A stretch of DNA of 35,099 bases from Alkalispirochaeta sp. GTDB lineage: Bacteria > Spirochaetota > Spirochaetia > DSM-27196 > Alkalispirochaetaceae. Below, one piece after another: positions 8,575 through 33,575 of the stretch. Numbering within the stretch: position 1 is the stretch's first letter; every line of letters starts with the position of its first letter. Where the stretch lies: positions 1 to 35,099 of the forward strand of contig CBDESZ010000032.1 in NCBI GenBank assembly GCA_965242725.1, written 5' to 3'. The notes below the pieces were generated by a model. That model was not told where the DNA came from and made no database searches. It saw only the letters and a list, made by a program, of their open reading frames with translations. The position numbers and the translations under genes were made by a program.

Positions 8575-8592
8575 AAAAGCTGGAGGAAAGAT

Positions 8593-8820
8593 ATGAAAGA
8601 AGAAACTCTCGATTGTTTGGGCGAAGCATGTCCGGTTCCGTTGGTAAAAGCGCAAAAAGCACTCGAAAAACTTGAGATCGGCGACGTACTCATCGTTTCC
8701 ATCGACCACTCCTGTGCCATGAAAAACGTTCCCGACTGGGCCCGCGAGGCGGGTCACAACGTGGAAGTTGAAGAGGTTGACGACGGCGAGTGGGAAGTCA
8801 TCATCGAGAAAGCAAAATAG
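8593..8820 (+). CDS. TusA/YeeD/SirA-family sulfur carrier
   Basis: LDCLGEACPVP (CPxP motif), 75 aa; SD GGAGG. Confidence 0.92.
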   Translation: MKEETLDCLGEACPVPLVKAQKALEKLEIGDVLIVSIDHSCAMKNVPDWAREAGHNVEVEEVDDGEWEVIIEKAK

Positions 8821-8921
8821 GTGAATGACGTGCTTCGGAAAGGTTTGGCGGATCGGTGGAAGGTCGTGCATCTCCCCGGTCCGCCGCCTCCCGAGTGCAG
8901 TTCTTACAGGAGAATTCCTCT

Positions 8922-9473
8922 ATGCTGAAAAAAATTTCTGACGCAATTGCCAATAATGACTACTACAAAGTGTGGTTGAAAGACGCATGGCCCTATATTA
9001 CCGGTGCGCTGCTCCTTTCAATCTTTCAGATCGTGACCCTTGCCGCCACCGGAAATCCCTGGGGTGTTTCGGCGGCTTTTGCAAACTGGGGCGCCTGGAT
9101 CTACGAGGCCCTCGGCGGCTCCGTGGACAAGTGGTTCTACTTCTCCTCTGAAGGAGCACAGGCCGTTCTGGAACGGGGATTCCTCAGAGATCCGGCAACG
9201 ATCCGCAACCTCGGTCTGATCCTGGGCGCCCTCTTTGCGACGCTTATTGCATCAGGTTTCAAGTTTAAAAAAATCAAGTCGGGCAAACAGGTAGCCGCTG
9301 CAATTCTCGGGGGTACGCTCATGGGATACGGCGCCCGCCTCGCCTTTGGGTGTAACATCGGCGCCTTCTATTCCGGGATTGCATCCCTCTCCCTCTCGGG
9401 TTGGGTATTCGGCATCTTCCTCTTTGTCGGCGCCATAATCGGCAGCAAATTGCTCGTCAAAGTCTTCATGTAG
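8922..9473 (+). CDS. YeeE/YedE sulfur-compound transporter, C-terminal half
   Basis: PWGVS, GLILGAL, GGTLMGYGARLAFGCNIGAFYSG; start reassigned to ATG 8922 (SD AGGAG). Confidence 0.9.
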   Translation: MLKKISDAIANNDYYKVWLKDAWPYITGALLLSIFQIVTLAATGNPWGVSAAFANWGAWIYEALGGSVDKWFYFSSEGAQAVLERGFLRDPATIRNLGLILGALFATLIASGFKFKKIKSGKQVAAAILGGTLMGYGARLAFGCNIGAFYSGIASLSLSGWVFGIFLFVGAIIGSKLLVKVFM

Positions 9474-9490
9474 CGAAAGAGAGAAATGAA

Positions 9491-10750
9491 ATGCGAGAAA
9501 AGAAGATAGAACAGTACGACGTCGTCATCATCGGTGGGGGCCCTGCGGGACTTACCGCTGCAATTTACTGCGGTCGGGCGCGGCTGAACACGATTCTCAT
9601 CGAGAAGGCCCTGGTCGGAGGATTGGCAACATATACCAACGAGATCGAGAACTATCCGGGTTTTCCCGAGGGCAGCTCCGGCCTCGGCCTGATGGAGCTC
9701 TTCCACAAACAGGCAAAGAAGTTCGGAGTCAAATTCAAACTCACCGATGTGAAGAGTGTGGACCTGGAAGAGGAAACCAAGCGGGTTGAAACCTTCCGGA
9801 ACATTTACGAGGCAAAGACAGTCATCGTCGCCTCCGGCGGACGTCCCCGCATCACCAAAGCAAAGAACGAAGAAAAATACCTCTTTGACAAGGGTATCTC
9901 CTTCTGCGCCACCTGTGACGCCGCGGCGAACACCGACAAGACCGTCATGGTCATCGGGTCCGGAGACGCCGCGATTGAAGAGGGAATGTTTCTCTCAAAA
10001 TTCGCCAGGGAAGTGCTGGTAAGCGTCATCCATGATGAACCGAAAATGGACTGTAACGAAATTGCCCGCGACCAGGCACTTGCAAACCCCAGGATGAAGA
10101 TGATCTGGAACACAATGGTCGACAGTTTTGACGGGAACGAACACCTTGAGACGGTAAACCTGAAAAATCTGAAGACCGGAGAGATTCTGCCGTTCACCGT
10201 CGACACCTGCTTTGAGTTTATCGGGTACGAACCAAACACGGAGATCTTCAAGGGCAAGCTCAACATGAGCAAGCGCAACTACGTGATCACCAACGAGAAG
10301 ATGGAAACGGGTATTCCCGGCGTCTTTGCCTGTGGCGACGTACGTGAAAAAGAGCTGAAGCAGGTTGCCACCGCTGTGGGAGACGGTGCCATCGCGGGCG
10401 TCGGCGCGGAAAAATACATTGCCGAGACGGAGATGTTCGAGAACCAGATCATGCAGAAGGAAAAGATCGGTCTCATTTACATCTACAGCGCCATTGATGC
10501 GCCGAGCCGTGAACTGCTGCCGATGATGCAGGAAATCGAATCCGAATTTGACGGCCAGGTGAAACTGAACGTCATCGACCAGTACAAGGGCAAGAGTCTC
10601 TGCGATCGCCTCGGATGCGATATTGAGCCGATGACGATCTTCTTTACCAGGGACGGAGAGGTTGTCGACACCTCAACCAGGGTGGACAAAAAGAGCGTCA
10701 TTGAGAATCTCAACAAGTACGTGACGGTACCGGTGGGAGGAAAGGAATGA
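9491..10750 (+). CDS. trxB: Thioredoxin reductase-like flavoprotein with C-terminal thioredoxin-like domain
   Basis: IIGGGPAGLTAAIY FAD motif, IENYPG, CATCD redox centre, GVFACGDV, QVATAVGDG; extra ~100 aa C-terminal domain; start ATG 9491. Confidence 0.88.
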   Translation: MREKKIEQYDVVIIGGGPAGLTAAIYCGRARLNTILIEKALVGGLATYTNEIENYPGFPEGSSGLGLMELFHKQAKKFGVKFKLTDVKSVDLEEETKRVETFRNIYEAKTVIVASGGRPRITKAKNEEKYLFDKGISFCATCDAAANTDKTVMVIGSGDAAIEEGMFLSKFAREVLVSVIHDEPKMDCNEIARDQALANPRMKMIWNTMVDSFDGNEHLETVNLKNLKTGEILPFTVDTCFEFIGYEPNTEIFKGKLNMSKRNYVITNEKMETGIPGVFACGDVREKELKQVATAVGDGAIAGVGAEKYIAETEMFENQIMQKEKIGLIYIYSAIDAPSRELLPMMQEIESEFDGQVKLNVIDQYKGKSLCDRLGCDIEPMTIFFTRDGEVVDTSTRVDKKSVIENLNKYVTVPVGGKE

Positions 10751-11655
10751 AGAAAACCCTCTCCATCATCGCCGTCGCAGCGGCGGCGATCGTTCTCCTC
10801 GGGTGCGGCCCTTCCCCTGCGGGTGAAAGCGGAACGGAAATCATTACCGCCAGAGAGGCGCTGAAGCTCCTCAGCGACACGACGGATGCGGTACTGGTCG
10901 ACGCCCGGCCGACCCTGGACTACCGGGAACAGCACGTTGAAGGTGCGGTGACGATCTCCCGGGCGGACATCGTCGTAAACACCCCCTATCCCAACCTCGT
11001 CGGTACGGGCGAACAGATTGAGCGGGTGATGAGCGGCAGGGGTATCGGAAACGACACCCTTGTCATCGCCTACGACGACAACAACAACATGGATTCCGCC
11101 CGTCTCTGGTGGACCCTCAGGTACTACGGCCACGACGGGGTCAAGGTGGTCAGCGGAGGTCTCAAGGCGCTGCAGGCGGAAGGGGTCGCGATGACGTCGG
11201 CGGAACCGACGGTGGAAGCGGCCACGTTTACCGCCGCCTCCCCCGATGAATCGATGATCATTACCGCATCTCAGGTGCGTGCCCTCGTGGAGGAACCGCG
11301 GGAAGATTTGACCATCATAGATACCCGTACGCCCGAGGAGTACCTGGAGGGAACGATCCCCGGTGCGGTACTGCTCAACTATGTGGGAAACAACTTCTCC
11401 GACGGCACCTATCGGCCTGTGCGTCAGATTCGTATCCGCTATATAGAAGCGGGAATCGATCTGGATGAAGGGGCGGTACTCTTCTGCAAGACATCGATCC
11501 GCGGGGCCCAGACGTACCTTGCGATGTATAACGGGGGATATCGCAATTTGAAACTCTATGACGGGGCGTGGGTGGAATGGTCCGCCAACCCTATGAATCC
11601 AATCTACATCGAAGAACCGGCGGTCCTCGAACTGCGGGCTTCAGATAATTCGTAA
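10747..11655 (+). CDS. Two-domain sulfurtransferase (rhodanese/SseA-like) lipoprotein
   Basis: Lipobox LLGC; SARLWWTLRYYG, IIDTRTPEEY, active loop CKTSIR, LYDGAWVEW; ATGA overlap with trxB. Confidence 0.9.
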   Translation: MKKTLSIIAVAAAAIVLLGCGPSPAGESGTEIITAREALKLLSDTTDAVLVDARPTLDYREQHVEGAVTISRADIVVNTPYPNLVGTGEQIERVMSGRGIGNDTLVIAYDDNNNMDSARLWWTLRYYGHDGVKVVSGGLKALQAEGVAMTSAEPTVEAATFTAASPDESMIITASQVRALVEEPREDLTIIDTRTPEEYLEGTIPGAVLLNYVGNNFSDGTYRPVRQIRIRYIEAGIDLDEGAVLFCKTSIRGAQTYLAMYNGGYRNLKLYDGAWVEWSANPMNPIYIEEPAVLELRASDNS

Positions 11656-11681
11656 TCACGGTATTACAAAAGGAGAGTTCC

Positions 11682-12644
11682 ATGAAAACGAGAGTAATCG
11701 TTTCGGTAGTGGTGGTCGTCATTGCGGCACTCGTCATGGGGTGCGGCGGTCAGGAATCACAGCAGGCTCAGGCTCCCGCCGGTACGGAGAGTGCGGCGGA
11801 AGCACAGCAGAAAGGTCCCTCCGTACGGGAGGCGGTGGAAGGGTATTTTGCCAATATGCCGGACCACATCTACAAAGTGGGTCAGGAAGAGTTCCTCCAG
11901 ATGGTCGCCGCCGGCGAGGAGATGACGATCATCGACATACGCCGCCCCGATGATTACGCCCAGGGTCACATCAAAGGCGCCGTCAACATGGCGTGGGGAA
12001 CACCGGCAATGTACGAAATGGTGTCCCATATCCCCACGGACAAGCCGGTCTTCATCAACTGCTACTCCGGACAGACCGCAGGTCAGGCGGTGGCGCTCCT
12101 CAATATCGCAGGCATTCCCGCACGGTCCATCAACCTCGGATGGAACTTCGGTCTTTCCCGGGTAGAGGGCATGCAGGAATATGTAGAAACCGACGTCAAC
12201 GAACTGCCCGCGTCGGTACAAACGGAGATACCCGAGAATATCATGGCCGCCTATCGCGGATTCTATGAGGCGACTGCAGAAGCCGGGGGCACGCCCTTCG
12301 CAAGCAACATCGTCAGTGAAGAGAATGCCAAGGCGATCCTTGACGCCGGTGACGAGAGCGTCCTCTTTGTCTCGGTACGTCGGCCGGAACATTTTGCGGA
12401 AGCTCACATCGAGGGAGCGATAAACATTCCCTTCGGCAAGGGCATGCAGGAAAATTTTGCGTCCCTCCCGGCGGACAAAAAGCTCATCATCTACTGCTAC
12501 ACCGGCCAGACTGCCGGTCAGGTGGTGGGAGGACTGCGCATGCTCGGTTATGACGCGGTCTCCCTCAAGGGCGGTATGGGCATGCCCGCCAATGAACCGC
12601 TGGGATGGGTCGCCCAGGGCTATCCGACCGTTGCAGGCAACTGA
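11682..12644 (+). CDS. Tandem-rhodanese lipoprotein
   Basis: Lipobox VMGC; two rhodanese repeats with CYSGQTAG and CYTGQTAG loops and HI.GA.N motifs; SD AAGGAG. Confidence 0.88.
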   Translation: MKTRVIVSVVVVVIAALVMGCGGQESQQAQAPAGTESAAEAQQKGPSVREAVEGYFANMPDHIYKVGQEEFLQMVAAGEEMTIIDIRRPDDYAQGHIKGAVNMAWGTPAMYEMVSHIPTDKPVFINCYSGQTAGQAVALLNIAGIPARSINLGWNFGLSRVEGMQEYVETDVNELPASVQTEIPENIMAAYRGFYEATAEAGGTPFASNIVSEENAKAILDAGDESVLFVSVRRPEHFAEAHIEGAINIPFGKGMQENFASLPADKKLIIYCYTGQTAGQVVGGLRMLGYDAVSLKGGMGMPANEPLGWVAQGYPTVAGN

Positions 12645-12677
12645 CGTCACGGCGAACTGCGTTACACGATTGTTTAC

Positions 12678-12703
12678 GCCCGGCTTTCAGCCGGGCTTTT
12701 TTT
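12678..12703 (+). terminator. Rho-independent terminator ending the sulfur-relay operon
   Basis: GCCCGGCT-ttc-AGCCGGGC followed by T7. Confidence 0.9.
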
Positions 12704-12753
12704 ATCCGTTGACCCGCCGCGACAGATGGGTACACTACCGTAGTGGGACGAGG

Positions 12754-14532
12754 ATGATTGGCATCAGACGGTATGGTATTCCTCTCGGTTTTCTCCTGTA
12801 CGCCCTCTTTTCCCTCTGGAGTCTGTCCTGGTATCCAGCCGTGCACAGCGATGAAGTGTGGCTCGCGTCGTTGACGCGGACGATGATGGAAGAGGGAACC
12901 GTTGCAGCGACGGAGGAGTTCTTTTCACTGACACAGCGCCATCCCCATGCGCTGAAAACGCTTTACCACCTCATTCAAATGCCCTTTCTCGCCGTGCAGT
13001 TCAGCCACCTCGCGGCACGACTGCCCGCTTTGCTGGCGGTCTGCGTCGGGATGTTCCTGTTTTATCGTATCGTCGCCGGAACGACCGGAAACACATGGGT
13101 CGCCGCCGCAACTGCCTTCGCCTTCGGAATGGACCCGCAGATCCTTTACATCAGCCATTTCGGTCGTCAGGAGAGTCTGATTCTGCTCGTTATCCTGGGC
13201 GGACTTGCGGCGATAACGTCATCGGTCAGTCGGAAATCACATGCTCCGTCGGGCGGGGCACAATCAACGCGTTCCGCCGTAACGATTACCGGAACGATCG
13301 TCGGGCTGGGAGTATTTGTACACCCCAACGCCTTTATCGCCGCGGCAGTTCTCACGCCGTGGGTACTCCGTCGGTCGTGGGTGGAACGACGGGATCTCCC
13401 GCCCGGCCGTCGCCTTGCCGTCGGCATGACGCTCTATCTCATCCCGCTCCTTACGGCGGCGGTCGCAGCTGTCGCGGCGAGCCTTGCGATGGATTTCCGT
13501 TTTCCCGTCCACTATATGGCCTTCGGCAGCAGCGTCGGTGTCTCAGACAACTACCTGCAGCGATTTTTTCGCCTCATCTCCTTCTTCCGGAATCTGATCA
13601 CCAGGAATCAGGGAACCTATTACCTTCCCCCCGTCACCACCCGGCTCCTGGCGATAGGCGCTCTACCTGTTGTGACCGGGTTCGTCGTCCTGGGACGAAA
13701 ACTCGGAAGGAAAAACTCAAACAGGACGGCAGGAAAGACCGATGGGAGCACTCCCCTCGGATTACTCTCATGTTCCCTGATCTCGACAGCCGTATGTATT
13801 ATCGCCCTTTATCTCATCGGGAAATACAGTCCGCCAAGCATCGTCTTTCTCTTCCCCTTTATCTATCTCGCCTTCGGTGGACTTGCGGGCTATCTCCTTT
13901 CACCTCAGGCGCCGTCCGCCGGGGTGACAGCCGGCGGGGTGACACATGGCGGGGTGACAGCAGCCGTCGTCGTTCTCGCGGCCACCGTCGCCATGCCGCT
14001 CCTTGCAACGGCCGCGGAGCTCGGACGTTGGCACCCCGGAACAACCGGTGATTCCTACGCCTCTTTCATCAGCGAAATCCGACGGGTAATTGAAGAAAAC
14101 GACCTTGGGGAGACGCCGGTACTGGCAAACCTGAACGCCGGATTTGCATTTGCACCGGGCCGGTTGAGGGCATTTCACGATCTCGCGGCACTTCCCCCCG
14201 GCGACGACGTGGCGATGGATCGCTATGTACGGGACGAGGAAATTGCCGCCGTCTTTCTCCCTCGTCGTGAGATGGAAATAATCTACGGGAACCGCCCCGT
14301 CTGGAACGACGTATACGGCAATCCGTCACGCTTCTACCCGCAGCTCATGGCAATCCTCGGGAAACGTGGCACCCTCGTAGAAACCATCGAGGCCCCGGTG
14401 TACGCCATGCGACTGCTCCGCTACATTCCGGTGAGCGGAAAAGGCGCCGCCGGAGAGAACCCGCCCGCCGTTGAGGTGTATGTACTCGACCGCCGCACCG
14501 CCGGCGGCGTCTCGCGCGAGGAGAACTGGTAA
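12754..14532 (+). CDS. ArnT/PMT-like (GT-C) integral membrane glycosyltransferase
   Basis: First TM followed by a SDE acidic motif (HSDEVW), ARLPAL, SHFGRQE, many TMs, soluble C-terminus; start reassigned to ATG 12754; TTGACC-16-TACACT at 12709-12736 upstream. Confidence 0.7.
   Translation: MIGIRRYGIPLGFLLYALFSLWSLSWYPAVHSDEVWLASLTRTMMEEGTVAATEEFFSLTQRHPHALKTLYHLIQMPFLAVQFSHLAARLPALLAVCVGMFLFYRIVAGTTGNTWVAAATAFAFGMDPQILYISHFGRQESLILLVILGGLAAITSSVSRKSHAPSGGAQSTRSAVTITGTIVGLGVFVHPNAFIAAAVLTPWVLRRSWVERRDLPPGRRLAVGMTLYLIPLLTAAVAAVAASLAMDFRFPVHYMAFGSSVGVSDNYLQRFFRLISFFRNLITRNQGTYYLPPVTTRLLAIGALPVVTGFVVLGRKLGRKNSNRTAGKTDGSTPLGLLSCSLISTAVCIIALYLIGKYSPPSIVFLFPFIYLAFGGLAGYLLSPQAPSAGVTAGGVTHGGVTAAVVVLAATVAMPLLATAAELGRWHPGTTGDSYASFISEIRRVIEENDLGETPVLANLNAGFAFAPGRLRAFHDLAALPPGDDVAMDRYVRDEEIAAVFLPRREMEIIYGNRPVWNDVYGNPSRFYPQLMAILGKRGTLVETIEAPVYAMRLLRYIPVSGKGAAGENPPAVEVYVLDRRTAGGVSREENW
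13918..13965 (+). repeat. 15-bp in-frame tandem repeat x3
   Basis: Core GGGGTGACA repeated at 15-bp spacing, encoding GVTAG-GVTHG-GVTAA. Confidence 0.7.
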
Positions 14533-16941: not shown

Positions 16942-18642
16942 ATGCCACAGAGAGCATCAAACTACCGATCCCTGCTTGTCACGACAATTCTGGTTCTCCT
17001 GATCACGAACCACACCCTCTTTGCGGAAAGGGCTGCGACGTCCGCCCATCGCCTTGCGACGGACGCGGCAATCGAAGTTCTCCGTTCCGGTGGCAACGCT
17101 GCCGATGCGGCCTTTGCTACCGCCGCAGTACTGACCATCGTGGAACCGTGGTTTTCAAGCGTCATGGGCGGAGGAACATGGGCGCTCTACTACAACCACG
17201 CCGATGGAGAGGTGTACGCCCTCGACGGCGTCGGCCCCGCCGCATCGGGAGCGACATCATCGTATTTTTCTCAGCCCGGAGTGGCCTCCCGGTCGGGAAT
17301 GCATCAAGCCGTCGTTCCGGGAGCGTGGGGCGGCTGGATGGAATGGCTGAAGGAGTTCGGACGGCTCCCCCTGGACCGCCTCCTGGAACGGGCGATCGCC
17401 GTCGCCGAGGAAGGATATACCGTGGATTCAACAATGGCGGCGTGGCTGCGACGGGGGGAAGACAACATCGCCACATGGCCATACAGCCGGGAAATATACA
17501 TGCCCGGCGGAGAGCTCCTTACCGCTGGCGACGTCGTTCGACAGCCTGCAATGGCCCGGACCTTTCGTGATGTACAGGAGGTCTACCGACGCAACCGATC
17601 AAGAGGACGATCGGCGGCCTTTGATGCGGCCAACGACTATTTTTACCGGGGACCCATCGGGGACTCCATCGTCGCCTATTCCCGCGATCACGGCGGTCTC
17701 TTTGAGCGATCCGATTTTTCCGATTTCCATACCGGAATCGTCGAACCGATTTCCATTGAATACGACGACATAACGGTATTTCAGAATCCGCCCAACAGTC
17801 AGGGAGCAACGATGCTCATGGCCCTCAACATTCTGGAAGGTTTCGACATGACCCAGTTTGGGGTGGATGATCCCCAGGCAGTTCACCTCCAGGCAGAGGC
17901 GCTGAAGATCGCCCACGCCGCGAAGCATCGCCATATCGGGGACCCAGCCTTTGTGGACGTCCCGATGGAGGAGCTGCTGTCTGATGAACACGCCCAGGCG
18001 GCGCGGGAGATGATACGGTGGGATCGGCCCCTGATCTGGCCCTTTCCGGACTCCCTCGATGAAATCGAGGATTCCAACACCTCCACCTTCCACATCGTCG
18101 ATGATGAGGGAAACGGCGCGGCGGTGACGACCTCTCTGGGCGCCCAGTTTCTCGTCGCCGGACCGAGCGGCGTCCATATCAACAATCGGATGCGCATGTT
18201 CTATTACAATACAGGCCTTCCCAACACCGTCGAGCCGGGAAAAAAGGTGCGCCATACAAGCAATCCCTACATCGCCCTGAAAGACGGCAGCCTGTACATC
18301 CTGGGAGGAAACACCGGGGTGGACACCCAGCCTCAGGGCCAGGTGCAGCACTTCATTGCCGTGGTGGAATACGGTCTCACCCCGCAGGAGGCGGTGTCAC
18401 GGCCGCGTTTCCTGACCCGGGGATTTCCCGCCGGTCAATGGCCATTCCGGGCCCAGAACGACCTCGCCCTTGAGCCGGGAACACCGGAACTTCTGGAACG
18501 GGGTATGACGGCGCTTGGACACACAGTCATCAACAGCGGAATATGGGGGAGCGCACATATGATCGTCGTCGACCCCGATTCCGGAGAACTCACCGTCGGT
18601 ACCGACCCCCGTGATCCCGCAGGAAAGGGTGTCGTCGAATGA
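16942..18642 (+). CDS. Gamma-glutamyltransferase-family Ntn hydrolase, exported
   Basis: GGNAADAA, VVPGA..GW, PPNSQG, autoprocessing Thr in NTSTFHIVD, signal peptide, SD AAGGAG. Confidence 0.88.
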   Translation: MPQRASNYRSLLVTTILVLLITNHTLFAERAATSAHRLATDAAIEVLRSGGNAADAAFATAAVLTIVEPWFSSVMGGGTWALYYNHADGEVYALDGVGPAASGATSSYFSQPGVASRSGMHQAVVPGAWGGWMEWLKEFGRLPLDRLLERAIAVAEEGYTVDSTMAAWLRRGEDNIATWPYSREIYMPGGELLTAGDVVRQPAMARTFRDVQEVYRRNRSRGRSAAFDAANDYFYRGPIGDSIVAYSRDHGGLFERSDFSDFHTGIVEPISIEYDDITVFQNPPNSQGATMLMALNILEGFDMTQFGVDDPQAVHLQAEALKIAHAAKHRHIGDPAFVDVPMEELLSDEHAQAAREMIRWDRPLIWPFPDSLDEIEDSNTSTFHIVDDEGNGAAVTTSLGAQFLVAGPSGVHINNRMRMFYYNTGLPNTVEPGKKVRHTSNPYIALKDGSLYILGGNTGVDTQPQGQVQHFIAVVEYGLTPQEAVSRPRFLTRGFPAGQWPFRAQNDLALEPGTPELLERGMTALGHTVINSGIWGSAHMIVVDPDSGELTVGTDPRDPAGKGVVE

Positions 18643-20597
18643 GAATCGCCCTTCCCGTCTTCTCTCTGCGGACGTGGGGGGTGATAACGGTATCGCTGGC
18701 TCTCACCCTCACAGCGTGCACCCCCGGCGATACGGTACCACCTGAGCCATCGGATAATCCCGCCGAATCGATGGAATCAACGGAATCGGAGGTACCGTCC
18801 CCGCCGGATCCTCCGGCGCGTCGCGCCGAGGCGATGGACGTTTCGGAGCTCATTCAAGTCATCGACTATGACACCTTTGATCCCGATGAAACCGAGGTAA
18901 TCGTACCGGAAGCGCTGCAAGGGTATCGCGACGCCGTGGAGGATGGAGTATCCCGTCAATGGGGAAAGGATATTCCCGCACATGGATCGCGGCACGCCGT
19001 GACCGCCAGGGATCCCGTTGCCGCGCGGGTGGGTCTGCGTGTGCTTCAGGGAGGAGGAAACGCCGCGGATGCCGCGTTTGCCGTGGGAGCCGCCCTGAGT
19101 GTCACCGAGCCGTGGTTTTCCCACGCCCTGGGAGGCGGTACGTGGGCGTTGTATCGGGAAAACTCCGGTGCGGTCCACGCCGTTGACGGCGCGGGGACGA
19201 TCGGGAGTCTCGCGGATGCGGAGTACTTTCGGGAAAGTGAAAACCTCCCCGCCCACGGGATGGTCTGGACGATCGTACCCGGCGCCTGGGACGCATGGAT
19301 GGTCTGGCTGGAACGATTCGGCACGATGGAGCTGGACACGCTCCTCGCTCCCGCGGTGGACCTTGCGGGAGAAGGCGCTCCTGCGAGCCGCACCATGGTC
19401 GCCTGGATCGCCCAGCAGCGGGACTCGATAGCGAACCGGCCGGCGTCGGCGGCGATATTTCTGCCCGGCAACGAGGTGCCGGCGGCGGGTCAGATGTTCA
19501 TTCAGGAAGAGCTTGAAAAGACATTCAAAATGATCATCGCCGCCTATCGTGCCGCCCGTCCCGGAGGGCGCGAGGCGGCGTTTCAGGCGGCCCGGGACGT
19601 ATATTATCGCGGCCCCATCGGCAGAGCGGTTGCCCGATACTCACGACGGAACGGCGGGAGCCTCACGGACGACGACTTTGCCGCCTACGAGGCGGTCTTC
19701 CGCAAACCCCTGGTAACGAAGTTTGCCGAATGGACGCTCTACAACCCGCCGCCGGGAAGCCAGGGTATCGTCATGCCCATGGCTCTCAATATCATTTCCC
19801 ACGCCCTGCCCGACCCCGCCGCATGGGACGATCCCGACACGATTCACGTCATCGCGGAAGCGATGAACCTCGCCCACATTGACAAGCACCACTACATCGG
19901 AGATCCCGACTCCATGGAAATGCCCCTTGAACGCCTCCTGAGCTCCTCATACGGTGCGGAACAGGCGGAACGAATTACACCCACCGCGGCTCTCCAATGG
20001 CCGCAGCAGGGCGGTCTGGACGTCGGAGAACACAACACCACAACCTTTTCCGTTGTCGACCGCTGGGGCAATGGAGCCGCTGTCACCACGTCGGTGGGCG
20101 CCCAGTTTGTCGTCGCCGGCGAGACGGGTATCGTCGTCAACCAGCGGCTGCAGAACGTCTTTTACGATGAAGACAACCCCAATTCCCTCGTTCCGGGTCG
20201 CCGGGTACGCCACACCGTCAATCCCTATATCGCCGAATTGCCGGGAAGACGCATCGTCCTAGGCGGGAATACCGGATACGACACCCAGCCGCAGGGGCAG
20301 ATTCAGCAATTTCTCAACATCGCGCGATTCGGCGCAAACGCCCAGGAAGCGGTAAGCCGCCCGCGATATATCGTCCATTCATTTCCCGACATCACCTATC
20401 CCCACACCGTCGGCAATCAACTTGCCCTGGAGTGGGGTTTTCCCGAGAACATAGCCGGTGCGCTGGCGGAAAAGGGACACAATCTGTCGCGGGGCGCGAT
20501 ATTTGGAAACGGCAACGTGATCATTCAGGAAATCACCGACGGCACGATAGAGGCCGGTGCCGATCACCGGGGAGAAAACCTGGCCCTGGCGGAGTAA
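18639..20597 (+). CDS. Gamma-glutamyltransferase-family Ntn hydrolase, lipoprotein
   Basis: Lipobox LTAC, Pro/Ser/Glu linker, GGNAADAA, PPGSQG, NTTTFSVVD; ATGA overlap. Confidence 0.88.
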   Translation: MRIALPVFSLRTWGVITVSLALTLTACTPGDTVPPEPSDNPAESMESTESEVPSPPDPPARRAEAMDVSELIQVIDYDTFDPDETEVIVPEALQGYRDAVEDGVSRQWGKDIPAHGSRHAVTARDPVAARVGLRVLQGGGNAADAAFAVGAALSVTEPWFSHALGGGTWALYRENSGAVHAVDGAGTIGSLADAEYFRESENLPAHGMVWTIVPGAWDAWMVWLERFGTMELDTLLAPAVDLAGEGAPASRTMVAWIAQQRDSIANRPASAAIFLPGNEVPAAGQMFIQEELEKTFKMIIAAYRAARPGGREAAFQAARDVYYRGPIGRAVARYSRRNGGSLTDDDFAAYEAVFRKPLVTKFAEWTLYNPPPGSQGIVMPMALNIISHALPDPAAWDDPDTIHVIAEAMNLAHIDKHHYIGDPDSMEMPLERLLSSSYGAEQAERITPTAALQWPQQGGLDVGEHNTTTFSVVDRWGNGAAVTTSVGAQFVVAGETGIVVNQRLQNVFYDEDNPNSLVPGRRVRHTVNPYIAELPGRRIVLGGNTGYDTQPQGQIQQFLNIARFGANAQEAVSRPRYIVHSFPDITYPHTVGNQLALEWGFPENIAGALAEKGHNLSRGAIFGNGNVIIQEITDGTIEAGADHRGENLALAE

Positions 20598-26229: not shown

Positions 26230-28245
26230 ATGAAGTCGTCTATGCCTATAGATAAAAGGCCACCACAGAACTCACCGGTTTTTAACTTCCCCCATGACGA
26301 CGACCAGATAGATTCTCCCCTCCTCATCGTCTCTTCCACAGGAGTTGTCCGGTACGCAAACGATGCGAGCTGGATCGTTCTCTCCGCGTGGAACAGCGCC
26401 GTCGGGTCGATGATTCCCGAGCGGTGGCGTCAGACGGTACGCAGCGCCTGCGAGACGGGGGCAACCCAGAACGCCGTGCTGACCATCGGCGTCATTTCAA
26501 TCGATCTCTTCTTTGTCCCCCAGTGTTCAAAAAAGTCGGTCCTCGTCGTCGGATCGGAGACGACGGCGGAGCGGGAGTCCGAGCGGGAGAAGCTCATCCA
26601 CGCGACGATTTACATGCAGTCCAGGGAGGCGATCATCGTTCTGGACGATGAGTTCCGCACGATTGATCTCAATCCGGCATACACCCAGGTGACGGGCGTC
26701 ACCGAGGAGGAGGCGCTTGGAGAGCTGCCCCTCTTCATACGGCAGGCGCAACGGGACGCCGGCCTCCATCACGAGGTGATCACGGCACTTGCGGAAACGG
26801 GGTCGTGGCAGGGGGAGGTTGTCGTCGACACCGATTCCGGGGAGGAACAGGTCATTCACGCGTCCCTGTCGGCTATCCGTCTTCACGGCGAGGAGATCAC
26901 CCACTATCTCGGCCTGATCAGCGATATCACCTACCGGCGCAAGGCGGAGAAGGCGTTACAGAAGATGGCCCACTTTGACGCCCTGACGGGTCTGCCCAAC
27001 AGGTATCTCTTTACCGACCGACTGCAGACGGCGCTTGACGATTGCCGCCACGGCGGAGACCGTCTGGCGCTGATGATCGTTGACCTCGACGGCTTCAAGT
27101 CCATAAACGATACCTTTGGACATCGCGCGGGGGATACGCTGCTCCAGAAAGTCGGCGGTGCAATGGCCGACGCCGTCCGTACCAGTGATACCGTGGCGCG
27201 CCTGGGGGGAGACGAGTTTGCCGTTATCGCCAGGGATATCAAGTCCGAACACGATATAACCATCGTGGCACAGAAACTCAGGAACTCGATTTCAAAGGCC
27301 GTCCGCATCGACGGGTATGAGATGTACGTAACCGGAAGTATCGGCATCGCAATCTTTCCCGAGGACGGTACGGAGCCGGAAATACTCTTCCGCCGCGCCG
27401 ATACGGCGATGTACCGGGTCAAGACGGCGGGGAAGAACGACTTTGCCCACGCCAAGGCGGACCGTCAGGAGACGATAGCCCGGAATCTCAAGCTCCAGAC
27501 AAATCTCAGACACGCCCTGACGCGGGATACAATAGGCGTCGTCTATCAGCCGCAGCTCTCCACCAGCACGGGACAGCTTGTCGGTGTGGAAGTTCTCGCC
27601 CGCTGGTCGGTACCGGACATCGGACAGGTGTCGCCCCTCGATTTTGTCGCCATCGCGGAAAAGCACGGTCTGATCCACCAGCTTGGAGAACGTGTGCTCT
27701 ATCGGGCGTGTGAACAGGGGCTGCGATGGATAGAGGAGTACCATCGGGAGATTCCGATGAGCGTCAATATTTCTGCGCGACAGCTGGGACACCCCCAGTT
27801 TATACCTTCACTGTATCGTATTCTCAACGAGACCGGCTTCCCTCCGGCGCTGCTGGAGCTGGAAATAACGGAGTCGGTCTTTATTGAAAATCCCGAGGAG
27901 ACGGTGGATACCCTGCAGGAGCTCGTTTCCCGGGGTGTCAGCTTCTGCATCGACGATTTCGGCACTCAGTACGCGTCGCTCATGTACATAAAGAACTTCC
28001 CGGTAGGGACGATTAAAATAGACCAGACCTTTATCAAGGATATTCCCGACGACGAGAGCGGGACGCGCATCGTTGCGGCAATTGTCGCCATGGCGTCCAG
28101 TCTTCATTGCCGGATTATCGCGGAAGGCGTGGAATCGGCGCGGCAGTTTGACTATCTCAAGAATGCCGGGTGTCACATTGTTCAGGGATACTATTGCGGT
28201 ATGCCCATGGAGGCTCAACAAATTGCGAAACAATTCCTACAATAA
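26230..28245 (+). CDS. PAS-GGDEF-EAL diguanylate cyclase/phosphodiesterase
   Basis: PAS (NPAYTQVTG...WQGEV), DALTGLPNR, RTSD I-site, GGDEF, EVLARW, ELEITES, DDFGT, KID, EGVE, QGY. Confidence 0.93.
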   Translation: MKSSMPIDKRPPQNSPVFNFPHDDDQIDSPLLIVSSTGVVRYANDASWIVLSAWNSAVGSMIPERWRQTVRSACETGATQNAVLTIGVISIDLFFVPQCSKKSVLVVGSETTAERESEREKLIHATIYMQSREAIIVLDDEFRTIDLNPAYTQVTGVTEEEALGELPLFIRQAQRDAGLHHEVITALAETGSWQGEVVVDTDSGEEQVIHASLSAIRLHGEEITHYLGLISDITYRRKAEKALQKMAHFDALTGLPNRYLFTDRLQTALDDCRHGGDRLALMIVDLDGFKSINDTFGHRAGDTLLQKVGGAMADAVRTSDTVARLGGDEFAVIARDIKSEHDITIVAQKLRNSISKAVRIDGYEMYVTGSIGIAIFPEDGTEPEILFRRADTAMYRVKTAGKNDFAHAKADRQETIARNLKLQTNLRHALTRDTIGVVYQPQLSTSTGQLVGVEVLARWSVPDIGQVSPLDFVAIAEKHGLIHQLGERVLYRACEQGLRWIEEYHREIPMSVNISARQLGHPQFIPSLYRILNETGFPPALLELEITESVFIENPEETVDTLQELVSRGVSFCIDDFGTQYASLMYIKNFPVGTIKIDQTFIKDIPDDESGTRIVAAIVAMASSLHCRIIAEGVESARQFDYLKNAGCHIVQGYYCGMPMEAQQIAKQFLQ

Positions 28246-28315: not shown

Positions 28316-28807
28316 ATGTATAACGAATTTAACCTAGAAGTAAAGCCAATATGGTCGGAAGTGGAGCGGGTTATTCTCGCGACGCGGGACTATTTGACGG
28401 AATGCGGTTTTCCGGAGAACAGCGTCGATACCTACACCATGGTGGCCTGTGAATTGGTGGAAAACGGGATTAAGTACGGCCAGTACGAATCCCCCGAAGA
28501 TGGGTACGTGGACGTCACCATCGACATCTCTGATGCGGTGATTACCGTACAGGTTCAAAATCGTCTCAAAGAAGAAAACACGTATCATTTGCGTCAGCTC
28601 GACAAGACGCTCCAATGGATTAGAGGTTTTCAGGATCCCTTTCAGGCGTATGTTGAACGACTCAAGCAGATCTCCCGGGAAAGTTCAGATCAGAACAAAA
28701 GCGGCCTCGGTATCGTCCGTATCGCCTACGAGGCAAAGGCTACGATCGACTTTATCGTCGGAGAAGATGAAACGTTGCAAGTTGTTGCGGTGTCGCACAT
28801 CAACTGA
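28316..28807 (+). CDS. SiaB/RsbW-like HATPase Ser/Thr kinase
   Basis: N-box ELVENGIKYG, G-box KSGLGIVRIAYE, helical insert (QAYVERLKQ) before the G-box as in SiaB-type kinases; no HisKA domain. Confidence 0.7.
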   Translation: MYNEFNLEVKPIWSEVERVILATRDYLTECGFPENSVDTYTMVACELVENGIKYGQYESPEDGYVDVTIDISDAVITVQVQNRLKEENTYHLRQLDKTLQWIRGFQDPFQAYVERLKQISRESSDQNKSGLGIVRIAYEAKATIDFIVGEDETLQVVAVSHIN

Positions 28808-28820
28808 GAAGGAGTAAGCG

Positions 28821-29195
28821 ATGGAAAAGTTTCAGGGAATTCAGGAAGGACCCCTGTCAATTGCACGTGAAGACGCCGGTAAGGAAATACGACTCATCTT
28901 TTCCGGTAAGAGTATTCTCAGAAGTCCCGCAGAGTTCCTGCAACCGATTCTCCTTCAGGTGCTTGGAGAAGCGACGCTCAACGAGAAACGTCTCGTATTG
29001 GACTTCAGACAGCTGACCTATATGAACTCATCCACCTTTACCCCCCTGGTAAAGACACTGGAGCGGGCGCGGATGGGAACGACCCAATTGACGGTCCTCT
29101 ACAACGCCGAAGCCAAATGGCAGGCCGTGTCGTTTCACGCCTTGACGATTTTTGCAACAAGCGACGATCGTGTAAAAATATCCGGCAGTAACTAG
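28821..29195 (+). CDS. SiaC-like (DUF1987/STAS-like) phospho-acceptor
   Basis: FSGKSILRSPAEFLQPIL and LDFRQLTYMNSSTF align by eye with SiaC G.S.PEN...F and LDL.L.YLNTSS; SD AAGGAG. Confidence 0.7.
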   Translation: MEKFQGIQEGPLSIAREDAGKEIRLIFSGKSILRSPAEFLQPILLQVLGEATLNEKRLVLDFRQLTYMNSSTFTPLVKTLERARMGTTQLTVLYNAEAKWQAVSFHALTIFATSDDRVKISGSN

Positions 29196-29199
29196 CACT

Positions 29200-30621
29200 A
29201 TGGCAGGATTCGATACCATTTTACACGGACACCTTGGCCTCGACGAGAGGCAGATTCCCGTGGTTATTCGGTTTGCGTCGCGGTTTTCGCTCTGGATTCA
29301 ACAGAACAACGACGGAACCAACGGGAACGGTCACCTGGACCCGGAAATCGAAAAGTTTGATTTTCTCACCATTGAAGTAAACGGAAAGTCGATCCAGACG
29401 GGGCCGTGTCTGGCGATCGAATCACGGTCAATCCCGGACCGCCAAATACGAATCACCCCGACTCGCTCCATTTACGATTTTGAGAAGCTCTTTTCCGGCT
29501 CCCGTATCATCACGGTGGATTCCGCTCTTGTGGACCTACCCCTGGTCCTCACCTACAAGGAAGACATCAAGGACGAGTTTGTCCGCTTTGTCGCGGAGCT
29601 TACCTATGACCTGAGTACCTACAAGTCGACCTTTGACGAAATAGAACGGGAGCTCTCGGGGGAACCGGTAAAAGTCGCCGCCGTCGTACGCAGCGGCGTT
29701 CTCGAGTCGATGAGCGACTCCCTCCTGGATTATCTTGAAGAACGATACGAGCAGTTGAAGACGCTGACCCGTGACTACACACAGGAAGAACATGAACACC
29801 ACGGCTTCTATTTCAGAAAGCAGCTGTGGAACGTCATTCTCAGCGCGCCGATCATGACCCGGACCAACCTGAAGCCCCGCGGGTATATCGGTGATTCCGA
29901 GATGATGCAAATGATCTATCGCAATGACTTTGAGGGAACGACCATATTCGGACAGATCGTCCATAAACACGCAATCGGACAACCCGCCGCCGATGCGGTA
30001 CGCAACCGGCGCCACGATCTCCCGAAAGTGCTGCGTGAATTTGCGACGGCGTGGAAACGGACAAATCGCCGGGAGGACCGTCTCGCCGTCCTGTCCGTTG
30101 CATGCGGACCGGCCATGGAACTGGACGAGGTGTTCAAAGAGAAGGAAGACGTGGATCTCTTCTCCTTTTCCCTTCTTGACCAGGACAACCACGCCCTTCA
30201 GGAGGCGGCAAACGTCATTGAAGGGGTGGAGCGCCGCCACGGCAACAAGGTTTCGGTAAACTATATACGGGATTCCGTCCGGACAATGCTCTTCACCAAG
30301 GAGCTGAAGGCCAAGTGGGGGCAGTTTCATTTCATATATTCCATGGGTCTTTTTGATTATTTGAGCCGTCCCGTTGCGTCTGCTGTCATAAAAAAGCTAT
30401 ATAATCTATTATTACCCGGTGGTGAGATGATTATAGGAAACTTTTTCGTAGAAAATCCGACAATGATATATATGGCGTACTGGATGGACTGGACAATACT
30501 GTACCGAACCGAAGAAGACATGCTCGCCCTCGCCGAGGACCTTGAAGGAGCGACGGCGTCGATTGAGCGAGACGCGACGGGCATTCAACTATTTCTCAAA
30601 ATCAGGAAGGCCGCAGGGTAA
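29200..30621 (+). CDS. Class I SAM-dependent methyltransferase, PhcB-like (3-hydroxy fatty acid methyl ester synthase-like)
   Basis: KPRGYIGDSEM, AVRNRR, SAM motif VLSVACGPAME, LLDQD, FIYSMGLFDYL, LLPGGEMIIGNF, DWTILYR. The methyltransferase call is firm; PhcB likeness comes from recalled family motifs. Confidence 0.75.
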   Translation: MAGFDTILHGHLGLDERQIPVVIRFASRFSLWIQQNNDGTNGNGHLDPEIEKFDFLTIEVNGKSIQTGPCLAIESRSIPDRQIRITPTRSIYDFEKLFSGSRIITVDSALVDLPLVLTYKEDIKDEFVRFVAELTYDLSTYKSTFDEIERELSGEPVKVAAVVRSGVLESMSDSLLDYLEERYEQLKTLTRDYTQEEHEHHGFYFRKQLWNVILSAPIMTRTNLKPRGYIGDSEMMQMIYRNDFEGTTIFGQIVHKHAIGQPAADAVRNRRHDLPKVLREFATAWKRTNRREDRLAVLSVACGPAMELDEVFKEKEDVDLFSFSLLDQDNHALQEAANVIEGVERRHGNKVSVNYIRDSVRTMLFTKELKAKWGQFHFIYSMGLFDYLSRPVASAVIKKLYNLLLPGGEMIIGNFFVENPTMIYMAYWMDWTILYRTEEDMLALAEDLEGATASIERDATGIQLFLKIRKAAG

Positions 30622-32018
30622 TGGGTGAGAATCCGTCGCGCAGCATCGCTCTCCCCAATTTCGTACGCCAGCGACAGGTAGAGCACGAGATTTCCACCGA
30701 CGCCATAGACCGTAACGACTTTACCGGATACCAGCAGACGATCATTCACTCCTGGTTAAGGACCATTACGGCCCTTACCTTCGTGCTGGTTCCGATGTTC
30801 TTTGTGCTGGACATCTTTGTAACGCCGCCGGAACTTCTCATACGATTTGCAATATACCGAACCATTTCCACCGCTCTGGCGCTGATACAGCACTTCATCG
30901 TCAGATACACGAAACCGAGCAAGTTTTCATTCCTTCACGGGTATTTCGTCTCGTTTCAGGCCGGAGGTTTCATCGCGCTGATGACCGTCTTTCTGGGCGG
31001 TTTTTCATCGGGCTACTACGCCGGTCTCATCATGGTCATTATCGGCGCCAACCTGCTCATGCCGTGGCACGCCGCCCATACCGCGGCCAACGCGACGATC
31101 ATCGTCGCCATGTACACGGGACTCAACATTTTCAACGGCGGTATCGGAGCGGGCATCGCCGCCGCGAACAACCTCTTTTTCCTCATCGGTGTTTCCGTCA
31201 TTTCCGTCGCCATTAACCACGTCCGGTATCGCCTCATTCAGAGCGAGTTCTCCCTCCTGGTACAGCTGAAACAGGCACGGGACGCCCTCTGGAGTGAAAT
31301 GGAGCTGGCAAAGCAGGTACAGGTCGCACTCCTTCCCCGGCGCCTTGATATGTCCGGCTACGATGTGGCCGTATCATATGAGCCGGCACTGGAGGTCGGT
31401 GGTGACTACTACGACGTCATCGAGACGGGAAACGGCGTGCGTTTTGTCACCATTGGAGACGTGGCGGGACACGGACTTGACTCGGGTCTCATCATGATGA
31501 TGGCACAGACCGCCGTGATGTCCGTGATCAAGGGCGACGACCATTCAATGCCGACGGATGTACTGGCAACGGTCAATACGGTCCTGCGGGAAAATGTGGG
31601 ACGTCTCGGGTCCAACCACTACATGACCATGAGCGTCCTGCGTCTTGAAAATGACCGCGTCATCGTTGCCGGGCACCATCAGGACATCCTCGTCTATCGG
31701 CAGCGCCATCAGAAGACGGAGACCATATCCGTATCGGGCAGTTGGCTGGGTATTGCCGACAACATCCGTGATTTTACAACCGACCACGAGATCCCCATCG
31801 CCCCCGGTGACGGAATCCTTCTCTTTTCCGACGGTGTCACCGAGGCGATGTCACCAAACGGTCAGATGTATGGACAGGAGCGCCTGACGTCCCTCTTTTC
31901 CCGTGTCTCCGACCGGGCGCCGTCAGACGCCGTTGAGGCAATCCGTCTCGACGTGGATCGGTTTCAACTGGAAATGTCCGACGACGTCACCATTATTTTC
32001 CTGAAGAGAAACACCTGA
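30621..32018 (+). CDS. Membrane-bound PP2C/SpoIIE (SiaA/RsbU-like) phosphatase with ~6-TM sensor
   Basis: About 6 TM segments, coiled coil EMELAKQVQVALLP, VGGDYYD, GDVAGHG, FSDGVTEA, DDVT; TAATG coupling. Confidence 0.9.
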   Translation: MGENPSRSIALPNFVRQRQVEHEISTDAIDRNDFTGYQQTIIHSWLRTITALTFVLVPMFFVLDIFVTPPELLIRFAIYRTISTALALIQHFIVRYTKPSKFSFLHGYFVSFQAGGFIALMTVFLGGFSSGYYAGLIMVIIGANLLMPWHAAHTAANATIIVAMYTGLNIFNGGIGAGIAAANNLFFLIGVSVISVAINHVRYRLIQSEFSLLVQLKQARDALWSEMELAKQVQVALLPRRLDMSGYDVAVSYEPALEVGGDYYDVIETGNGVRFVTIGDVAGHGLDSGLIMMMAQTAVMSVIKGDDHSMPTDVLATVNTVLRENVGRLGSNHYMTMSVLRLENDRVIVAGHHQDILVYRQRHQKTETISVSGSWLGIADNIRDFTTDHEIPIAPGDGILLFSDGVTEAMSPNGQMYGQERLTSLFSRVSDRAPSDAVEAIRLDVDRFQLEMSDDVTIIFLKRNT

Positions 32019-32027
32019 CGCCGCATC

Positions 32028-33575
32028 TCACGACTGCGACCGTTTTTCCGCGTACATCTTGGTATCGGCAATTCGCAGCAGCTCATCACGGTCGGTACTG
32101 TCCTGCGGAAACACTGATACACCGAAACTCGCGCCTATCGTGATTGACTCGACACGACCGTCGAGTTCCAGGGTCATCGGTATGGTCAGTGTCCGGCGAA
32201 TCTTTTCTCCGATCACCATGAGGTCTCCCGGCTCATTGAGGTGTCCGCAGAGAACGACAAACTCATCCCCTCCGATCCGCGCGACCGTATCGGAATCGCG
32301 GATAGTCGAGTTAATGCGCTGTGCCGAGTTCCGGAGCACCGTATCTCCAGCCTGATGGCCGTAGGTATCGTTTACCTCCTTGAACCCGTTGAGATCGAAA
32401 TAGATCAACCCGCAGGAGCGACCATCCCGCACCGCTCCCTGGATCATCACATCGAAACGGTCGAAAAAGAGCTTTCTGTTGGGCATCCCGGTGAGGTCGT
32501 CGTACAGTGCAAGGCGTTCCAGCTCAAGCTCGGCCCGTTTTCTCCGCGCCACATCGTGGGCGACAAGGACCGTTCCGACCGTACGGCCGTAGGTATCCTT
32601 CAACACCGACGCGGAAATCGCGAGTATGACGTCCCGTCCGTCGGGGAGCGTCCACGTTCGTTCAACGTCCCGAAAGGGAATGTTTTCAGGTGCGAGCAGC
32701 GACGCCGAGACGTCAAGATGATTCAGCGCTTCGTCGAGAGTTCGATTGACCAGATCGGGGGAGCGCCGGCCAAGGACGCGGTGAGCCGGCTCATTGGCGA
32801 TTCTGATGACCTTCCTGCGGTCGACAACCAGGACGGCGCTCGCCAGGGTCTCGAGAATGGATGAGGCGGCAAGATCGGGGGTGACGTCGACCAGACGATA
32901 CCGAATGATCGCCACCCCCGTTACGGAGGCAAAGAGCGTGACCGGTATGTACCCGATGGGGTATACGGGAAGTCCGAGGGCGGGAAGGACATCGATGATC
33001 GTCGTTGCACCGATGATGATTGCTGCGATCTGCCATCCGAGGCGGCGGCGGTCGAGCCGGTACTCCTGTTGCCGGTATTCTCCGATATACCGGACAAGGA
33101 CGACCGCCATGATCACACCGAATACGGAGAGAAAAAGAACTCCCGTGATACCGTACTCCGAAAACCACCCCCACGGTACGGGGATGATGTCTACGAGAAT
33201 CAGGTCGGTAAACCACACGAGAAGTACGTGAACGACGGCGACGGCGAAGATGAGTCGTTTCTGTATGACCGTTCGGGAAGAACAGCCGAGGATCTCCATT
33301 GCGGTACCGAAAAAGGCGAGGGGCATGAAGGCAACGCCGATATGGCCGACGCGATCCCAGAAAAGTGCAAGCTCCGGTGTGGTGACGGCGTAGGAAACTC
33401 CGACACCAAGGGTGTATACGCCCACGGTCACCGCAAAGAAGAGATGCCACCACCCGATACGTGACCATTGCACCCGGACCGTGACATAGAGTCCGAATAT
33501 AAGTGTCCAGAGTCCCGCAATGACGACGGGTGTAGAGTACACGCTAAACGCAACGACGGCGGGATTAAAAAGCAT
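32028..33575 (-). CDS. 7TM (HisKA_7TM-like)-PAS-GGDEF diguanylate cyclase
   Basis: About 7 TMs ending AIIRYRLVD, PAS (VLVVD...ANEPA), DDLTGMPNR, RDSD I-site, GGDEF; no EAL. Confidence 0.9.
   Translation of the reverse strand: MLFNPAVVAFSVYSTPVVIAGLWTLIFGLYVTVRVQWSRIGWWHLFFAVTVGVYTLGVGVSYAVTTPELALFWDRVGHIGVAFMPLAFFGTAMEILGCSSRTVIQKRLIFAVAVVHVLLVWFTDLILVDIIPVPWGWFSEYGITGVLFLSVFGVIMAVVLVRYIGEYRQQEYRLDRRRLGWQIAAIIIGATTIIDVLPALGLPVYPIGYIPVTLFASVTGVAIIRYRLVDVTPDLAASSILETLASAVLVVDRRKVIRIANEPAHRVLGRRSPDLVNRTLDEALNHLDVSASLLAPENIPFRDVERTWTLPDGRDVILAISASVLKDTYGRTVGTVLVAHDVARRKRAELELERLALYDDLTGMPNRKLFFDRFDVMIQGAVRDGRSCGLIYFDLNGFKEVNDTYGHQAGDTVLRNSAQRINSTIRDSDTVARIGGDEFVVLCGHLNEPGDLMVIGEKIRRTLTIPMTLELDGRVESITIGASFGVSVFPQDSTDRDELLRIADTKMYAEKRSQS

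Follow-up and report, generated by a model that had tools for sequence, protein, structure and literature searches.

The question raised by positions 28,316 to 32,018 of a 35,099-nt stretch of Alkalispirochaeta sp. DNA (assembly GCA_965242725.1, contig CBDESZ010000032.1; this whole stretch is the window) is whether four closely packed genes make and read a chemical signal of their own. All four lie on the plus strand, separated by gaps of 13 bp and 4 bp and then by a TAATG overlap at 30619-30623. They encode a 163-aa Slr1658-like or SpoIIAB-like GHKL protein without HisKA, predicted to be the Ser kinase of the next product (28316-28807), a 124-aa Slr1659-like single-domain STAS protein with a predicted phospho-acceptor Ser70 in a YMNSS motif (28821-29195), a 473-aa PhcB-family class I S-adenosylmethionine (SAM) methyltransferase that is the candidate signal synthase (29200-30621), and a 465-aa protein in which a PhcS-type six-helix membrane sensor domain is fused to a PP2C/SpoIIE phosphatase, the candidate receptor (30621-32018). 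An initial annotation made from the sequence alone had described this layout, and the open reading frames (ORFs) and translations bear out its gene order, gaps, overlap and motifs, with YMNSS, KPRGYIGD, YSMGLFDYL, PGGEMIIGNF and WTILYR all found. The cassette is real and strongly conserved, and in it a PhcB-family enzyme and a PhcS-type sensor are coupled to a phosphatase partner switch. By their defining features, it belongs to neither the Phc nor the SiaABCD system. Judging from sequence relationships, we consider it fairly probable (about 60%) that the cassette is a self-contained Phc-like circuit, in which a self-made lipid signal would be read by the phosphatase partner switch. It is present in a single copy in the source genome (G000, 4.3 Mb), whose host is presumably a free-living-type spirochaete.

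Scanning genome contigs gave 245 confirmed methyltransferase relatives, of which the best 80 loci were analysed, so the locus set leans to close relatives. The order kinase, STAS protein, methyltransferase and membrane domain is kept in 71 of these 80 loci, with the PP2C domain within the same ORF in 70. Of the nine loci that deviate, one is truncated where its contig ends, three (L029, L038 and L078) are damaged or miscalled, and five are without the cassette (L027, L046, L050, L056 and L079), three of which still have a same-family sensor beside the enzyme. According to the record labels, the loci belong to Spirochaetota, Desulfobacterales and other deltaproteobacteria, Myxococcota, Gammaproteobacteria, Calditrichota, Marinimicrobia/Fidelibacterota, SAR324 and one Bacteroidota, so that in this set of closest loci the four-gene order spans at least seven phyla. 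A sample of 401 genomes from the window's own phylum contains 54 with a match at E<=1e-8 and 31 with a cassette-type score, and the four genes stand in order at 30/30 of its best loci (these include G000 and one genome already in the earlier set). The four genes recur together in both samples, whereas the initial annotation had named a lack of such recurrence as counting against its proposal. Exact look-ups found cassette proteins in Leptospira weilii, L. borgpetersenii, L. mayottensis, L. alexanderi, L. alstonii, L. yasudae, L. johnsonii and L. neocaledonica, and the carriers also include harmless cultured Natronospirillum, Saccharospirillum, Aquisalimonas and Anaeromyxobacter.

The distribution is patchy, with the cassette in 1 of 16 genomes of the same genus, many of which are incomplete, and the guanine-cytosine content of the cassette (0.52-0.55) is slightly below that of its flanks (0.58-0.63). 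Both features would fit the transfer of four genes co-inherited as a mobile block whose methyltransferase has no functional link to the partner switch. Such a block is highly improbable, as the order and tight spacing stay fixed across phyla at 38-53% identity and the pairing of enzyme and sensor recurs in four subfamilies with different outputs. No cassette relative was found in the viral contigs searched, and a search of plasmids (143 records) returned distant relatives only, useful for L090.

Some individual loci deserve mention. Some genomes have two cassettes; at L214, L215 and L037/L068, two full ones lie about 13-15 kb apart in one genome, which suggests two signals or specificities. 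Some L. borgpetersenii records, including serovar Hardjo-bovis, have a shorter product for the methyltransferase (374-382 versus 464 aa) or for the phosphatase (305-312 versus 465 aa), the proteins in question being P0302, P0305, P0347 and P0351; these could be gene decay or annotation. A kinase-methyltransferase fusion in L038 was rejected as evidence, since it looks like a deletion that removed the STAS gene. A single ORF joining GGDEF-EAL and kinase (L014:5009-7564) was likewise rejected, since homopolymer runs lie at the junction, where a sequencing error may have occurred, and its relatives are split.

The initial annotation called the methyltransferase PhcB-like, and this holds in that the enzyme is a full-length homologue, though it belongs to a sister clade of PhcB and is not an orthologue. 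It is 31% identical to the protein named PhcB of Cupriavidus necator N-1 over 270 aa of the catalytic part (E 5e-36), and a profile-profile alignment with PhcB runs through 440 co-linear columns with a probability of 100, indicating end-to-end homology. In trees made by quick methods (IQ-TREE and FastTree, midpoint root), the cassette enzymes form their own clade apart from PhcB, and the window enzyme is not inside the PhcB clade. Its model (predicted local distance difference test, pLDDT, 90.7) has an N-terminal beta domain (~7-87), a helical middle and a C-terminal Rossmann-like catalytic domain. Pfam gives weak matches to Methyltransf_25, Methyltransf_12 and Methyltransf_20, and a sequence search of the PDB returned no match for this enzyme or for the kinase-like protein. 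The nearest fold is 3OCJ (Z 19.8), followed mostly by small-molecule methyltransferases, with a few RNA methyltransferases lower in the list. Clustering with protein or RNA methyltransferases, the outcome that the initial annotation had set against its own proposal, was not seen, and a protein or RNA methyltransferase reading is not favoured. Many homologues carry an automatic label for biosynthesis of the methyl ester of 3-hydroxypalmitic acid (3-OH PAME), which is annotation by homology only.

The phosphatase consists of the sensor domain (~36-225), a coiled coil and the PP2C/SpoIIE domain (~235-465; SpoIIE Pfam match, E 2e-33). A hydropathy scan found only three segments above threshold, while the AlphaFold model of residues 36-225 (pLDDT 94) shows six helices, in agreement with the roughly six transmembrane segments first proposed. 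The closest folds to the sensor domain are ImcA (8WCN, Z 16.2, root-mean-square deviation 2.8 over 189), human AC5 (Z 15.2) and 6R3Q (Z 14.3); these matches stand at Z 14-16 and the next rows at Z 9. ImcA and the anchors of class III adenylyl cyclases thus have the same six-helix fold, but they share only 6-12% sequence identity with the domain, and the fold shows no ligand. According to part of PMC4821796, the CqsS and LqsS anchors of six-helix design bind lipophilic autoinducers; PhcS and phosphatases have 0 occurrences in that source. In the catalytic part, D262, D280, G283, D404, G405 and D454 are present in 71/71 phosphatases, and the spacing of the metal-binding aspartates D262, D280, D404 and D454 matches that of the ligands listed for SiaA in 10.1101/674879.

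The earlier guess that the membrane domain of the phosphatase is the sensor gains support from its homology to the sensor domain of PhcS-type kinases, with a profile-profile probability of 99.6 and E 9e-24 over 180 columns; the reference here is a source-named Janthinobacterium PhcS together with kinases encoded next to PhcB-clade genes, rather than PhcS of Ralstonia. Positions common to both groups are LD..P, R, M, S.YY.GL, LP, Y and N..F. A profile made from the cassette phosphatases only picks exactly one ORF in 72 of 82 PhcB-clade loci, namely the kinase adjoining the PhcB-like gene, with no other match at E<1 over 3347 ORFs, and the ten loci without a sensor match end at or just past the methyltransferase. 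The reverse profile, from PhcS-type sensors, recovers 72/74 cassette sensor domains at E<1e-3. A Paraburkholderia plasmid carries a kinase gene and two receiver genes after a PhcB-clade gene, and the membrane part of this kinase aligns with that of the phosphatase (E 2e-5). The named family MASE8 (PF20968) has no match in the window protein and matches 6/71 alignment members at E<=0.05 (best 7.5e-5); two PhcS-type kinases have no match at 1e-3.

Adjacency of synthase and sensor also recurs in two further methyltransferase subfamilies with other outputs or gene orders, so that the pairing is seen in four: PhcB with a kinase, the cassette enzyme with PP2C, a spirochaete type of 580 residues again with a kinase, and a PilZ type of 490 residues with a different PP2C. 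The third is a PhcB-family subfamily of 570-590 aa in spirochaetes of the same order, divergently adjoining a transmembrane (TM) histidine kinase with the same sensor family (L085-L089). The fourth is a sister system of the Leptospira family (L213:373-3676 on the minus strand, L226 and L227), in which a TM-PP2C protein (~620 aa, with an extra C-terminal part) is followed by a 490-aa PilZ-methyltransferase and no kinase or STAS gene is adjacent. Because the pairing occurs in four subfamilies and sensors are missing at most distant loci, it is a trait of the long subfamilies. At the deep level, the pairs fall into the same groups in the synthase tree as in the sensor tree; L035, whose adjacent sensor belongs to the adenylate cyclase, is for that reason an outlier in the sensor tree. 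In the one studied pair, PhcB makes 3-hydroxymyristic acid methyl ester (3-OH MAME) or 3-OH PAME, PhcS senses it, and both proteins co-evolve with the type of signal, as described in part of PMC7694676. The cassette resembles the Phc system of Ralstonia, Cupriavidus and Paraburkholderia (PhcB, PhcS, PhcR, PhcQ and PhcA) in that a PhcB-family gene is followed by the gene for a homologous six-helix sensor. In contrast to Phc, its sensor is fused to PP2C and not to HisKA-HATPase, neither HisKA nor a receiver (PhcR/PhcQ) is found among the four genes, a GHKL kinase-like gene and a STAS gene are added at the flank, and the enzyme belongs to a separate clade with 28% identity.

The kinase-like protein has weak Pfam matches to HATPase_c_2 and DUF6272, and HisKA is absent. 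It matches NF047703 (Slr1658) at E 9e-11 with 41.5 bits against a cut-off of 100, and SiaB at E 1e-3. Its N-box residues E46, E49 and N50, as well as S129, G132 and R135 of a G2-like motif, are invariant in 42/42 members, and its profile finds SpoIIAB structures at E 0.006, with a match that covers residues 1-81 only. From these similarities it is predicted to be the Ser kinase of the STAS protein. The STAS protein matches NF047705 (Slr1659) at E 1e-8 (35.2 bits, cut-off 100), Pfam SiaC at E 2.6e-4 and STAS at E 0.04; S70 and S71 are invariant in 78/78 members, and YMN-S70-S is found in 76-78/78. Ser70 is in register with the phospho-serine of TM1442 and SpoIIAA (in YMDS / FMDSS) and also with Thr68 of SiaC. 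The phospho-site of SiaC is YLN-T68-SS (parts of 10.1101/674879 and PMC8457831), and the YMNSS motif named in the initial annotation holds an invariant serine, the predicted phospho-acceptor, at the SiaC Thr68 position. One other weak match to the STAS profile in the source genome (G000:C16:136684-137073, minus strand, E 0.0014) is a possible second substrate.

The same annotation had described the switch as SiaABC-like, which is correct for its logic and acceptor site but not for its families, since the kinase and STAS proteins are closer to Slr1658/Slr1659 and lie below the SiaB/SiaC cut-offs. The Slr1658 model scores in 42/42 kinase-like proteins and SiaB in 9/42, and the Slr1659 model scores in 71/71 STAS proteins and SiaC in 4/71. 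The cassette shares with SiaABCD of Pseudomonas aeruginosa a membrane PP2C, a HisKA-less GHKL kinase and a small STAS-fold protein (as covered in parts of 10.1101/674879 and PMC8457831), together with the acceptor at the start of STAS helix 2 (Y-x-N-[T/S]-S) and, in the window's clade, an adjacent cyclic di-GMP (c-di-GMP) enzyme. It differs in that the window proteins score far below the cut-offs for SiaA (57 versus 700 bits), SiaB (18.6 versus 85) and SiaD (129 versus 290) and also below that for Pfam SiaC (21 versus 24.5), in its different sensor domain, and in having a methyltransferase inside the operon. Slr1658/Slr1659 of Synechocystis are the best-scoring named families in all members tested, but the cassette proteins are well below the NCBIfam cut-offs; Slr1658 itself is known from an iron-recovery phenotype (part of PMC7555055).

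What the switch would control appears to vary, and no fifth gene recurs at every locus. The Sia-type output first proposed is not supported, as no fixed SiaD-like gene is present in the cassette. A co-oriented neighbour that the initial annotation had not seen, at 26230-28245 (+), encodes a 671-aa PAS-like/PAS/GGDEF/EAL protein by Pfam, whose GGDEF, EVL and DDFG motifs look intact, and ends 70 bp before the kinase gene. A scan found no terminator-like site between the two genes, and a promoter scan gave 7 sites against 4.3 +/- 2.1 in shuffles, which is not significant. The sequencing runs listed for this DNA include no RNA run, which has no bearing on expression. The distinctive first PAS-like domain of this protein is found in 18/80 loci, in 17 of them directly upstream of the kinase on the same strand. 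The gene thus travels with the cassette in one clade and lies outside the conserved core, and in the Leptospira loci a receiver-PAS-adenylate cyclase occupies the upstream slot. According to part of PMC8457831, SiaC activates SiaD by binding its helical stalk and phosphorylation blocks this activation, so the upstream PAS-PAS-GGDEF-EAL enzyme is the natural candidate target of the STAS protein here and a candidate output of the switch in its clade.

A Phc-like circuit of this kind would work in four steps. As its homology to PhcB suggests, the methyltransferase would use SAM to turn a small lipophilic acid into a diffusible methyl ester, the acid most likely being a 3-hydroxy fatty acid or one related to it. 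The ester would partition into the membrane, bind the six-helix sensor and switch the PP2C domain via the coiled coil, by analogy with PhcS. The PP2C domain and the Slr1658-like kinase would then set the phosphorylation of Ser70 on the STAS protein, as for SpoIIAA and SiaC. In one of its states the STAS protein would bind a partner, here most likely the upstream PAS-PAS-GGDEF-EAL protein with a resulting change in c-di-GMP, and in other lineages an adenylate cyclase or another protein; it may also bind the N-terminal domain of the synthase as feedback.

The last possibility can be taken further, in that the core may be a feedback unit for signal production whose STAS protein targets the N-terminal beta domain of the methyltransferase, with behaviour set by other receptors of the same family. 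This alternative is compatible with the first three steps of the Phc-like circuit and differs in the fourth. In its favour, no gene other than those for kinase, phosphatase and methyltransferase is a constant companion of the STAS gene, and another protein of the sensor family is present in 42/80 loci, the fusions being to histidine kinases, CheA-like proteins, adenylate cyclases, chemoreceptors (methyl-accepting chemotaxis proteins), GGDEF/EAL and a second PP2C. Relatives of the enzyme also swap N-terminal regulatory domains: PilZ is above cut-off in the N-termini of 3/3 sister-subfamily proteins, and another relative has a cNMP-binding domain. PilZ is absent from the 25 Pfam families shown for the 71 cassette methyltransferases, and the N-terminus of the window enzyme has no RxxxR, its PilZ lead coming from an Atlas score of 0.82 only; this part is probably a degenerate PilZ-like regulatory barrel. 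In Ralstonia, PhcB with the substitution R22C in its N-terminal part shows altered quorum dynamics, and signal synthesis is influenced by PhcQ (part of PMC6989110). However, PhcB, which has no STAS gene, also has an N-terminal domain in this register (compared on their own, the two N-termini match at E 0.09, not significant), and a GGDEF-EAL or adenylate cyclase gene stands directly upstream in two separate clades, as an output would. We therefore regard the pure feedback unit as rather unlikely.

Several observations weigh against the Phc-like circuit. The mean identity between cassette and PhcB catalytic domains is only 28%, and that between the sensor domains 20%, so the chemistry may differ. 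The sensor family is far larger than its link to the synthase, with 4887 representatives at E<=1e-3, and its fold is shared with general adenylyl cyclase anchors, so the sensor need not detect the product of the cassette enzyme. The source genome's other sensor of the family, on contig C22, is closer to PhcS (E 4e-17) than the cassette's is (E 0.005), and across groups the synthase and sensor identities correlate weakly (Spearman 0.59, p 0.07, from ten points that are not independent). At 12/14 more distant loci, close relatives of the catalytic domain have no sensor within ~4 kb, and 2/80 close loci with full flanks (L027 and L050) lack any sensor. The DxG G1 motif is missing from the kinase-like protein, a Cys is found in the G2-like motif of some members, and no output gene is common to all loci. 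The low identity to PhcB, the size of the sensor family and the enzyme homologues without sensors would also suit a methyltransferase that modifies or switches off the signal, the sensor reading a membrane lipid or a free fatty acid that comes from metabolism or from a foreign source, or one that methylates the receptor as in chemotaxis adaptation, for which weak CheR Pfam matches in 50/71 cassette methyltransferases could be cited. These CheR matches span the SAM-binding stretch only, the structural neighbours are mostly small-molecule methyltransferases, and the enzyme of the studied PhcB-PhcS pair is a synthase, so we consider signal removal or receptor methylation quite unlikely.

If the cassette is indeed a Phc-like circuit, Phc-type chemistry, described for Ralstonia and close Burkholderiales in the literature covered, would be far wider and would be connected with a phosphatase partner switch rather than with a two-component system. 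A large unnamed sensor family would gain a candidate ligand class. Concrete candidates for synthase, receptor and phospho-site can now be named for groups with little described cell-cell signalling, for example L. weilii, L. borgpetersenii and L. mayottensis, and the cassette gives a tractable context for the uncharacterised Slr1658/Slr1659 families. More tentatively, and with some doubt, it may represent an undescribed widespread class of quorum sensing, with a PhcB-type autoinducer, a membrane PP2C, a STAS Ser relay to interchangeable c-di-GMP or cyclic AMP enzymes, and perhaps feedback on the PilZ-like domain. In that case it would provide a cell-density signal for spirochaetes including pathogenic Leptospira, for Desulfobacterota, for Myxococcota and for uncultured phyla, with thousands of orphan sensor-domain proteins as listeners. 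The AI-2 (autoinducer-2) receptors in which dCache_1 is fused to serine phosphatases are a precedent for an autoinducer-binding domain on a phosphatase, but they have another sensor and another signal, and the part of PMC12503165 covered contains no dedicated synthase-receptor-switch operon. No paper on the four-gene cassette is among those listed in the literature searches, and any survey of PhcB homologues in the original papers on Phc chemistry (Kai 2015, Ujita 2019, Kai 2023) could bear on its novelty.

The second PhcS-type sensor of the source genome (G000:C22:55155-63477; L180:155-8478) is a 756-aa TM-HisKA-HATPase-receiver-HD protein that ends a co-oriented run, which also holds a 1038-aa PilZ/LuxD-like acyltransferase/methyltransferase protein, an AMP-binding enzyme and a B12 radical-SAM enzyme. 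The 1038-aa protein has no match to the PhcB-family profile, and the run is possibly another lipid-signal synthase-receptor cluster. In two groups, each of six loci, the cassette is directly followed by a single-domain PilZ gene (L009:5965-6375, L067:10730-11116). In one Leptospira locus, a FadL/TodX-type outer-membrane channel gene (L212:11800-13218, minus strand) stands right after the cassette; G000 and the other loci searched contain no relative of it. In the window, a HisKA_7TM-PAS-GGDEF diguanylate cyclase gene (32028-33575, minus strand) converges on the cassette with a 9-bp gap and was not found as a conserved neighbour. Farther upstream lie a sulfur-handling cluster (7858-12644), which comprises two YeeE/YedE-type sulfur-transport ORFs along with two rhodanese proteins and a pyridine-nucleotide oxidoreductase, an ORF of 691 aa that matches no Pfam family at 1e-8 (12457-14532), and two gamma-glutamyltranspeptidase genes in tandem (16942-20597).

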